30,252 nt of DNA from the IMG/VR virus record IMGVR_UViG_2548876960_000006. One strand, written 5' to 3'. The DNA comes from a virus (Duplodnaviria > Heunggongvirae > Uroviricota > Caudoviricetes). Made by a program: the position numbers and the translations under genes. Below the pieces are notes generated by a model. It was not told where the DNA came from, searched no databases, and saw nothing but the letters and a program-made list of their open reading frames with translations. This document shows, piece by piece, positions 29,376 through 30,252 of the stretch (the first letter of the stretch is position 1; each line of letters starts with the position of its first letter).

Positions 29376-29406
29376 AAAAAACCCGCAGTTGTAGCAATGA
29401 TGCGGG
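29376..29406 (-). terminator. rho-independent terminator for the membrane-protein / small-ORF operon
   Basis: Minus strand: stem CCCGCA / TGCGGG (plus-strand 29382..29387 and 29401..29406), 13-nt loop, then TTTTTT (plus-strand A-run 29376..29381). Confidence 0.6.
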
Positions 29407-29468
29407 TTGAGTTAGTCTTTAAAACTGAAATTGATCAGCCATAGCGTTCATAGGTAGCTGCGTATGCA

Positions 29469-29633
29469 TTAACGTTTTTTAGGTGGTGGGGCTACTTGCT
29501 GCGTTTGCTGCGTTTGCCGTGGTGGTTGATAACCATTGTTCTGCTGATTTGGCCTACTTGATGGTTGATATCCCTCATTTATAGGTTGCCAGCCATCATA
29601 TTTAGTATTGTTTGCCGGTTTTTCTTCAGCCAT
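29469..29633 (-). CDS. small Gln/Pro/Asn-rich protein (54 aa), translationally coupled to the upstream membrane protein
   Basis: ATG 29633..29631 overlaps the upstream stop (ATGGCTGA); GAGG 6 nt upstream; MAEEKPANNTKYDGWQPINEGYQPSSRPNQQNNGYQPPRQTQQTQQVAPPPKKR. Under the ORF-track size cut-off. Confidence 0.35.
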   Translation of the reverse strand: MAEEKPANNTKYDGWQPINEGYQPSSRPNQQNNGYQPPRQTQQTQQVAPPPKKR

Positions 29634-30252
29634 TTTTTACCTCACTATTGTTGGGAGAATGTAATTTTACCTCAATAAACTCAACACTTTCTATTTCATT
29701 AGTCAATATTATTATGCCTAATGTATCAGCTAGTTCGTGATCGAAATCGCCATTCTCATCAAGCGCCCAATGTTTCTCAAGATAGATTTGTTCGGGTTCT
29801 GGACTATTGGATGCAAATGAGTCACTTCCATAAAAACCACCATATTTTTTACCGTTTTTTAGTGTTACCAATACCCAGCAGCGTTGTCTGGTTGAGAAGA
29901 AGTAGTCCCAAGAGCGCCCTATAGGGTGTGGAAGAATATTTTTGACTTTTTCCCAGTTACGAATTTTTAGCAATGCAACAGGTAATAGTACAGGTATTAC
30001 AATTAAAACTAAAAAGTAAAAAATGTAATATAAAATAGGGTGTTTCAAAAAAATGTCATTTGTTTCAATTAGATAAATTGGTATTAAAAGAAATGAAAAA
30101 TTTATGCAACTATATGAAACAACGTCAATTAAAACTTTTGATGTATCCAAATCAATTGATGGGTGAAATAGTCTGTAAACTCTCATGCTGATAAATCCGG
30201 GCATAATGAACAGTACAAATAAAAACAATTTCCCCTTCTCTAAAATGTCCAT
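29626..30252 (-). CDS. membrane protein of unknown function (at least 208 aa; may extend beyond the window)
   Basis: Three hydrophobic segments in the N-terminal half, then a roughly 110-aa soluble domain; very AT-rich. The first codon coincides with the window edge, so the true start is uncertain. Confidence 0.5.
   Translation of the reverse strand: MDILEKGKLFLFVLFIMPGFISMRVYRLFHPSIDLDTSKVLIDVVSYSCINFSFLLIPIYLIETNDIFLKHPILYYIFYFLVLIVIPVLLPVALLKIRNWEKVKNILPHPIGRSWDYFFSTRQRCWVLVTLKNGKKYGGFYGSDSFASNSPEPEQIYLEKHWALDENGDFDHELADTLGIIILTNEIESVEFIEVKLHSPNNSEVKNG

Follow-up and report, generated by a model that had tools for sequence, protein, structure and literature searches.

The right end of the virus record IMGVR_UViG_2548876960_000006 (Caudoviricetes), a stretch of 30,252 nucleotides referred to here as the window, raises the question of what is encoded by two overlapping minus-strand genes, one for a membrane protein and one for a protein of only 54 amino acids (aa), and of what the pair might do for the element that carries it. 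A reading of this DNA made from its letters alone (the sequence-only reading) had described the pair as an AT-rich cargo operon near a prophage edge and had set it, by inference, among superinfection exclusion, abortive infection or toxin-antidote modules. We found that the large protein belongs to the DUF6338 family (PF19865) and that the small one is a microprotein encoded directly downstream of DUF6338 genes in many phyla, whose last residue covaries with a single position of the membrane protein. The explanation that we favor, with a probability of about 0.5, is a self-contained mobile two-protein module in which the microprotein would sit on a membrane-anchored Sm-like domain, and which would have an accessory anti-phage role. 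The earlier interpretation as a whole is partly supported, and the finding is of more interest than first described because the small open reading frame (ORF) is a conserved, coevolving partner across phyla.

A membrane protein gene coupled to a microprotein gene

The larger gene (29626..30252, minus strand) encodes an inner-membrane protein of 208 aa, and its ATG forms the final three bases of the window. The sequence-only reading had recognized no family in it and had suspected that it might run beyond the window. Both points are corrected by the Pfam search, in which the protein matches DUF6338 with an E-value of 3.1e-37 and 128.6 bits (cutoff 26.5); the match starts from the ATG at 30252 and covers profile positions 7-202 of 205, and because it is full-length the gene is complete. 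The same 208-aa protein is annotated in RefSeq (WP_000353151.1) in an identical sequence from Escherichia coli. The second gene (29469..29633, minus strand) encodes a Gln- and Pro-rich microprotein of 54 aa, predicted to be disordered (MAEEKPANNTKYDGWQPINEGYQPSSRPNQQNNGYQPPRQTQQTQQVAPPPKKR; RefSeq WP_152951382.1).

The two ORFs share 8 nt (ATGGCTGA, 29626-29633), the start of the small ORF (ATG, 29633-29631) overlapping the end of the large one (TGA, 29628-29626). The small ORF has its own ribosome-binding site, GAGG, at 29640-29643, with a spacer of 6 nt to the ATG, and these signals, as read from the sequence, place the elements of translational coupling within 29626..29643 (minus strand). 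About 60 nt past the TAA of the small gene stands an intrinsic terminator (about 29376..29408, minus strand) made up of AACCCGCA, a 13-nt loop, TGCGGGTT and then six T. Its G+C-rich stem of 8 bp folds with a dG of -12.9 kcal/mol (z -2.8 against 200 shuffles); a simple consensus scan did not call it, because of the 13-nt loop. The G+C content is 0.386-0.388 across 29001-30000 compared to about 0.52 in the phage core, where values of about 0.50-0.58 are reached, and no RNA gene was found in the window by Rfam or ARAGORN. The coupled start with its own GAGG, the terminator and the AT-rich composition are therefore all as the sequence-only reading had them.

In the identical E. coli genome three further genes lie upstream on the same strand, the nearest of which, a PDC-S64-like gene, ends 20 nt before the DUF6338 ATG. 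Because of this close spacing the transcription unit probably continues past the window, with the pair as the distal part of a longer unit in this genome. What had been called a two-gene operon thus stands as a conserved coupling of a membrane protein to a small partner, but in this genome probably falls as a free-standing unit.

The microprotein follows DUF6338 genes in many phyla

We compared 63 viral and 80 genome loci encoding DUF6338 relatives (identity 37-85%) from Gamma-, Beta-, Alpha- and Deltaproteobacteria, Acidobacteriota, Nitrospirota, Planctomycetota, Bacteroidota, Synergistota and others. A partner was defined as an ORF of 25-92 aa on the same strand, starting within ~30 nt of the DUF6338 stop, with at least 10% proline and either two or more G[YWFH]xP repeats or a C-terminal tail of the PP-[KRGDE] type; the ORF of the window has three repeats, a PPPKKR tail and the 8-nt overlap. 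In at least 128 of 138 loci DUF6338 is directly followed on its strand by between one and four such ORFs, with a median length of 54 aa (range 25-92), and the remaining ten hold mostly variant forms of the partner. Five extra loci from plasmid and phage records were also inspected, and a GY.P or GF.P ORF was present downstream in four of them (three actinobacterial, one alphaproteobacterial plasmid). The gap from the DUF6338 stop to the start of the small ORF has a median of 4 nt, and a Shine-Dalgarno-like 4-mer accompanies 75% of the small ORFs versus 14% of control positions.

The association holds in the opposite direction as well. Among 6429 ORFs of 25-130 aa in all six frames of the 63 viral loci and the window, 100 carry the tail motif, and 92 of these lie directly after DUF6338, on its strand and with G[YW]xP repeats, the other eight being devoid of repeats. 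By these sequence counts the pairing is far above chance. The best-ranked of the other neighbor families was present in 17 of 138 loci, confined to one group of related phages; because no other gene travels consistently with DUF6338, the conserved unit is the pair. Programmed frameshifting that would join the two ORFs was considered as a general mechanism and ruled out, as in most loci the two genes do not overlap and the small one has its own Shine-Dalgarno-like site.

An alignment of 46 diverse partners places three G[YW]QP repeats in the microprotein of the window (G14-P17, G21-P24 and G34-P37; 29523..29594, minus strand), followed by the polyproline-basic tail PPPKKR (29472..29489, minus strand). 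Columns G14, P17, G21, Y22, P24, G34 and P37 are near-invariant, and the shared architecture can be written as M-(polar, Lys-rich)-[DEN]G[YW]QP-x(2-6)-[KRE]GYQP-x(8-20)-GGYQP[TP]-x-x-(GDNPxN)-PP(P)-tail. Across loci the small proteins bear 2-4 G[YW]xP repeats and a proline-rich tail, which falls into three classes: PPPKK[PR] or PPKKK; PPG[DKA]E or PPDEE; and a longer PPQGGSGVP… form. Between enterobacterial copies the ratio of nonsynonymous to synonymous substitution rates (dN/dS) of the small ORF is 0.04-0.12, much like that of DUF6338 itself; judged by this ratio, the ORF is under purifying selection and is no chance ORF. No family match to the microprotein was found in the Pfam, PHROGs, PADLOC and NCBIfam libraries. 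On the other hand, a search of 5.8 billion sequences with a profile of the 46 partners retrieved 146 members of this family; the 120 matches listed measure 46-78 aa, and all of them lack a Pfam domain as well as an informative name.

Relatives of the microprotein have been detected as proteins. In Pseudomonas stutzeri ATCC 14405, mass spectrometry identified three novel proline-rich peptides encoded directly after a DUF6338 gene, intact and from cells, with 44-114 peptide-spectrum matches and 98-100% coverage (PMC10433244). These peptides end in …PPPPKK, …PPPPPKRDSK and …PPPPPKKGG, and were reported there as novel ORFs absent from the annotation and as being restricted to P. stutzeri. The trio has the same gene order as our loci, DUF6338 and then small ORFs, and the same polyproline-KK tail; unlike the P. 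stutzeri-only view, however, the partner family described here spans phyla and has a common motif architecture. Save for these three peptides, the partner family appears from our searches to be undescribed. The small ORF, first picked out from its sequence, is thus conserved across loci, constrained and, in its P. stutzeri relatives, translated. In E. coli SC477 (locus L002, ~8000-8170, minus strand) an intact partner ORF of 56 aa (MVEDKPANNPRTIHDGWQPVEKGYQPTSRPDQQNNGYQPPRQTQQTQHIAPPPKKR) follows DUF6338 and is unannotated in RefSeq.

DUF6338 is predicted to carry a cytoplasmic Sm-like domain

A search for homologues of the large protein returned 72 sequences (identity 24-100%), all with PF19865, a family of 3457 representative clusters at 50% identity whose Pfam entry is titled 'Family of unknown function'. 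The window protein is a full-length and high-scoring member of this family, to which Pfam assigns no function, and our searches met with no earlier account of an Sm-like C-terminal half or of an obligatory small partner. In an AlphaFold2 (AF2) model computed from the alignment of homologues, helices extend over about aa 2-29, 37-64 and 72-98, consistent with hydropathy, and give a membrane domain of three predicted transmembrane (TM) helices (aa 9-95; 29968..30228, minus strand). Model and hydropathy therefore agree with the three N-terminal hydrophobic segments and the folded C-terminal domain that had been noticed earlier. Conserved positions in the membrane region comprise P18-G19 in TM1, an acidic residue at 43 together with S48 and N51 in TM2, and P87 in TM3; because polar residues are conserved within them, the helices are probably more than a mere anchor. 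Among 126 family members, the segment after TM3 is strongly basic (K+R 3.1 versus D+E 0.6), while acidic residues prevail at the N-terminus and in the second loop. This charge pattern fits the positive-inside rule, so the topology is predicted to be N-terminus out and C-terminus in, with the C-terminal domain in the cytoplasm.

That domain (aa 113-195; 29668..29916, minus strand) is modeled as a short N-terminal helix followed by a strongly bent, five-stranded antiparallel sheet, which is the arrangement of the Sm/LSm fold. On the evidence of the model, the C-terminal half folds as an Sm/LSm-like beta-barrel; a second AF2 model, of a relative, has a mean predicted local distance difference test (pLDDT) score of 83.7. 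Its invariant residues are W115, D116, F119, G134, G139 and P151, and in an alignment with 23 homologues all the family columns (P18-G19, W115-D116-x-x-F119, G134, G139 and P151) are kept in the window protein. LSM or Hfq profiles were absent from the Pfam matches of the large protein even at E <= 1, and no PDB chain was matched in sequence by the family profile. In PHROGs the large protein reached E-values of 0.15 and 0.39 at best, neither of them significant, and Foldseek against viral structures returned uncharacterized proteins only. In comparison with Sm, LSm and Hfq proteins, DUF6338 is instead membrane-anchored, has no LSM or Hfq sequence match, and its presumed ligand is a peptide.

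The microprotein tail covaries with residue 128 of the Sm-like domain

When the loci were sorted by the charge of the partner's C-terminus and the DUF6338 columns were compared, one column was prominent, that of residue 128. In the window this is L128 (codon 29869..29871, minus strand), located in strand beta1, where it points to the same side as the near-invariant W126. The residue is I, V or L opposite a partner with a terminal K, R or P, and K or R opposite one with a terminal D or E, with 113 concordant loci (88 and 25, respectively) and 4 discordant ones; of the latter, one is explained by its fragmentary ORF and another by its membership in the long-tail class. On a neighbor-joining tree of 232 branches built without columns 128 and 193, residue 128 changes five times and the tail class seven times, and four of the five changes at residue 128 share their branch with a tail change, so that the covariation involves at least four independent branches; the fifth change of residue 128, a reversal, lies one node apart from a tail change. 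A rough hypergeometric estimate made by hand puts the probability of four coincident changes by chance at ~1e-6. Position 193, at the end of strand beta5, changes from F, I or Y to R in the acidic-tail clade, and positions 136 and 167 shift in a sense complementary to the tail class. In the Sm fold strands beta1 and beta5 are adjacent, so residues 128 and 193 can make one patch.

Natural fusions point in the same direction. Three in-frame fusions of DUF6338 with a tail of the GYxP/PPKK type (P0222, P0238 and P0335) were found among the longer members in a library of 1.84 billion proteins. In the AF2 model of P0222, pLDDT is 46 in the linker and climbs steadily to 66 at the C-terminal ten residues, a rise that is no more than suggestive of contact between tail and domain. 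Given that the tail covaries with residue 128 and that natural fusions exist, we infer that the microprotein binds the Sm-like domain directly. The typical readers of proline-rich tails are small beta-rich domains (SH3, WW, GYF, EVH1), which use exposed aromatic residues for the purpose. The likeness to these polyproline-recognition domains is one of principle only, the near-invariant W126 flanking the covarying position 128.

A mobile module with a possible anti-phage role

These observations can be assembled into the following explanation. DUF6338 would be anchored in the inner membrane with its Sm-like domain facing the cytoplasm, and the microprotein, cytoplasmic and intrinsically disordered, would be made from the same mRNA by translational coupling. 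The C-terminal tail of the microprotein would lie on a beta1/beta5 patch that includes W126, L128 and position 193, and the GYxP repeats would probably share in binding the Sm-like domain. The microprotein would in this way act as the detachable tail of a membrane-anchored Sm-like assembly, possibly a ring. Carried as cargo by temperate phages, plasmids and defense-rich chromosomal regions, the pair would provide a lysogen-expressed accessory function at the inner membrane face that hinders incoming or replicating phages, by exclusion or by abortive infection. We hold this anti-phage role with modest confidence and by inference only; it is favored because of the cargo position, the mobility and the neighboring genes of the pair.

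The distribution of the module is patchy and mobile, covering prophage cargo arms, plasmids and defense-rich variable regions of chromosomes. It is rare and accessory in E. coli, where 5 of 5426 complete genomes have it. Beyond the single context read at first, the pair thus occurs in many phyla, in prophages, on 21 plasmids and in chromosomes. In 36 of 59 viral loci it lies 4.9 kb or less from a contig end. The 140 nearest large neighbors in bacterial genomes, counted without a background rate, are heterogeneous; among them are four caspases, three retron/DRT-type reverse transcriptases and three SNF2/ZorD-like helicases, in addition to AAA_21 and AbiEii, nSTAND3, OLD-type TOPRIM, Mrr, type I specificity subunits and integrases. 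The defense neighbors among them are supportive context and no proof.

Prophages encode membrane modules, such as lambda RexAB, P22 SieA/SieB and HK97 gp15, that act in superinfection exclusion or abortive infection. The present pair resembles them in its cargo position, its inner-membrane protein, its small size and its probable expression in the lysogen, whereas no sequence or fold relation to them was detected in PHROGs, PADLOC or Foldseek searches of viral structures. Searches of the literature on DUF6338, on the peptide motifs and on membrane-anchored Sm-like proteins turned up no account of the pairing, of the Sm-like fold or of a function, and the family is not mentioned in the accessible portion of the supplements of Rousset et al. 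2022 on P2-like hotspots. We found no described counterpart to this kind of system, in which a membrane Sm-like protein is combined with proline-tailed microproteins whose genes can be multiplied in tandem. A bolder proposal, that it represents a new class of membrane machine in which an Sm-like assembly takes a proline-rich peptide as ligand in place of RNA, with detachable and tandemly amplifiable tails, and spreads with phages, plasmids and defense islands as a conflict system for anti-phage action or exclusion, is possible but tentative, and we incline to doubt it in this full form.

Several observations weigh against the module as we propose it. Neither protein matches any system model of PADLOC-DB v2 at E <= 1, NCBIfam gave no match and PHROGs no informative one, so that no homology ties either protein to phage defense. 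Among 50,697 sequenced phage isolates a single one has the module, Klebsiella phage pJN2-26 (110 kb, circular). Many of the neighbors are ordinary genes, for example those of short-chain dehydrogenases and oxidoreductases, and the counts of defense genes come without a background rate. As for the contact, direct binding is proposed from covariation and from fusions, and the latter derive from metagenomic gene calls that could include assembly or frame errors; in fusion P0222, moreover, a basic tail occurs together with a K at the residue that corresponds to 128. Finally, the P. stutzeri peptides keep the PPPPKK tail yet have no clear GYxP repeats.

Alternative explanations

The alternative that survives best is a toxin-antidote pair, which we nevertheless consider unlikely. 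DUF6338 oligomers would damage or depolarize the membrane and a labile microprotein would restrain them through the Sm-like domain, such that a shut-off of host expression would let the antidote decay and the cell die. The tight translational coupling and the direct binding proposed here suit such a scheme, as do the disorder of the small partner, the plasmid and prophage locations, the polar residues conserved in the membrane helices (acidic 43, S48 and N51), and the presence of AbiEii and other toxin-type genes among the neighbors. However, an antidote encoded after its toxin, in one to four tandem copies, would be unusual; the natural fusions are hard to square with an antidote that has to be released; there is no DNA-binding part for autoregulation; and the P. 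stutzeri peptides are abundant in steady state.

A function outside genetic conflict, in membrane homeostasis or as a channel with the microprotein as regulatory subunit, is improbable too. It is suggested by the order of parts, since in MscS three helices are followed by an Sm-like beta domain, and DUF6338 likewise has three N-terminal helices and then an Sm-like beta domain; the likeness is one of layout alone, as the MS_channel profile was not matched and no solved membrane protein, MscS included, proved similar in sequence or fold. The size and age of the family (3457 representative clusters), the many loci amid ordinary chromosomal genes and the constitutive expression of the peptides in P. 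stutzeri would also suit a general function. The patchy accessory distribution (5 of 5426 E. coli genomes), the location on mobile elements and the AT-rich composition, typical of acquired DNA, point instead to cargo.

The tandem paralogous small genes, part conserved and part variable, and their high proline content could recall precursors of exported or modified peptides, either ribosomally synthesized and post-translationally modified or of the proline-rich antimicrobial type, with DUF6338 as exporter or immunity protein, and a remark in PMC10433244 places DUF6338 in biosynthetic gene clusters. This origin is very improbable: no modifying enzyme, protease or transporter is conserved nearby in the 138 loci, the microproteins have no leader or signal peptide, those of P. 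stutzeri were recovered from cells at full length (98-100% coverage), the tail covaries with a domain predicted to be cytoplasmic, and in-frame fusions exist.

There is very little to recommend the notion that the small ORF matters by its translation, polyproline stalling dependent on EF-P tuning the expression or stability of the DUF6338 mRNA, for although most members have a PPP stretch close to the stop codon and the stop and start codons overlap, the ORF sits downstream of the gene to be regulated with the terminator next, motifs distant from PPP are conserved across phyla, dN/dS is low over the whole ORF, the PPQGGSGVP… class and the acidic tails differ in proline count, single residues covary with DUF6338, and the peptides accumulate. 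Equally hard to credit is a holin-like or lysis-timing accessory of the phage, which the three helices in N-out/C-in orientation, as in class I holins, and six related prophages in which a GH108-type endolysin gene follows the module after 77 nt on its strand might suggest, because this phage has its own holin, endolysin and spanin (17027-17995, on the strand opposite to the pair), the module lies in a cargo arm with its own terminator, and most loci are outside phages.

Settings of the module in other genomes

Some loci have arrangements of their own. On a Mesorhizobium plasmid (L149, 1100-3285) SMODS, SLATT, DUF6338 and the small ORF form a same-strand run in which the pair comes last, and on a Streptomyces plasmid (L148, 2132-5246) a gene for a CHAT-domain protein starts 4 nt after the pair; both may be composite conflict systems. 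In the six prophages mentioned above (L044, L045, L058, L059, L060 and L064), DUF6338 is accompanied by two or three small genes, and the endolysin-like gene 77 nt downstream, on the same strand, was judged GH108-like by eye from its N-terminal sequence; the module sits there where a holin usually does. In another set of contigs (L013, L015-L020, L022, L029, L035, L036 and L052) the pair faces, in convergent orientation, a small phage gene that is conserved in the replication region and was judged VRR-NUC-like by eye from its translation. The cassette is therefore not always at a prophage edge. A conserved stretch downstream of the pair in several viral loci was considered as a tRNA or tmRNA attachment site and ruled out, since it corresponds to this convergent phage gene.

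The host prophage and its right cargo arm

At its right end the window shows no difference from E. coli Combat13F7 (L001), which carries the same element minus ~23 kb, from the early genes to the baseplate gene (window 3166-26230 versus L001 9004-9031); the deletion joint holds a 37-nt patch identical to window 19927-19963. The element is a P2-like myovirus prophage in the integrated state. Its replication gene is of the P2 type, and other genes encode an integrase, an origin-nicking protein, terminase, major head protein, tail sheath, holin, endolysin, spanin and tail fibers. It is inserted between mntS and mntR and is bounded by a 15-bp direct repeat, GCTATATTATA[A/T]AGC (window 199-213 and L001 15254-15268), which is probably the attachment core. 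The right copy of the repeat lies 2.2 kb past the right end of the window, and homology to 5422 other E. coli genomes restarts exactly there, which places the pair inside the element, in its right-hand cargo arm, in keeping with the position near a prophage edge proposed at first. A second, imperfect repeat of 19 bp, GCGACA(T/A)(T/A)TTTGCGACATT, is found just inside both ends of the element.

The cargo arm follows a baseplate or spike protein gene (26076-27779, plus strand; 567 aa, phrog_2258), the last structural gene before it, whose product is matched weakly by the phage-baseplate OB domain and by gp5 C-terminal repeats. The arm itself consists, in order, of a glycosyltransferase moron, a tRNA-Ile relic, the pair, and the three same-strand genes beyond the window. 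The O-antigen-type glycosyltransferase (28296-29012, minus strand; 238 aa) matches phrog_1962 (E 4e-81) and has no Pfam match, and its gene has its own terminator-like hairpin at ~29190-29218. The relic (29200-29305) comprises 106 nt and shares 87% identity with the last (3') 60 nt of a tRNA-Ile gene and the 46 nt of flank downstream of it, and no intact tRNA was called in it; it looks like a fragment of a former attachment site that separates two cargo cassettes. Sequence of this tRNA-Ile type borders a P2-like prophage at its gpD/ogr end in ~39 other E. coli genomes.

The gene nearest to the pair on the right (L001 13074-14099, minus strand), 20 nt beyond the end of the window, encodes a protein of 341 aa with a Cys-rich C-terminal half that matches the PADLOC candidate PDC-S64 almost over its full length (E 2.5e-47). 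Between it and the right junction lie ORFs of 186 aa and 101 aa, the latter with a hydrophobic segment. These three upstream genes were considered as parts of the module and ruled out, as none of them is present in any other DUF6338 locus.

Implications for the DUF6338 family

If the explanation favored here is right, a DUF family of more than 3000 clusters would acquire a fold and a topology, together with an obligatory partner and a contact that can be tested, that between residue 128 and the last residue of the tail, and microproteins that annotation pipelines often skip would become recognizable by their motif. DUF6338 would also be, to our knowledge, the first bacterial Sm-fold domain to recognize at the membrane a peptide rich in proline. 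As the pair moves in the company of prophage cargo and defense genes, these two small genes would constitute a concrete candidate for a new mechanism of phage exclusion or abortive infection.

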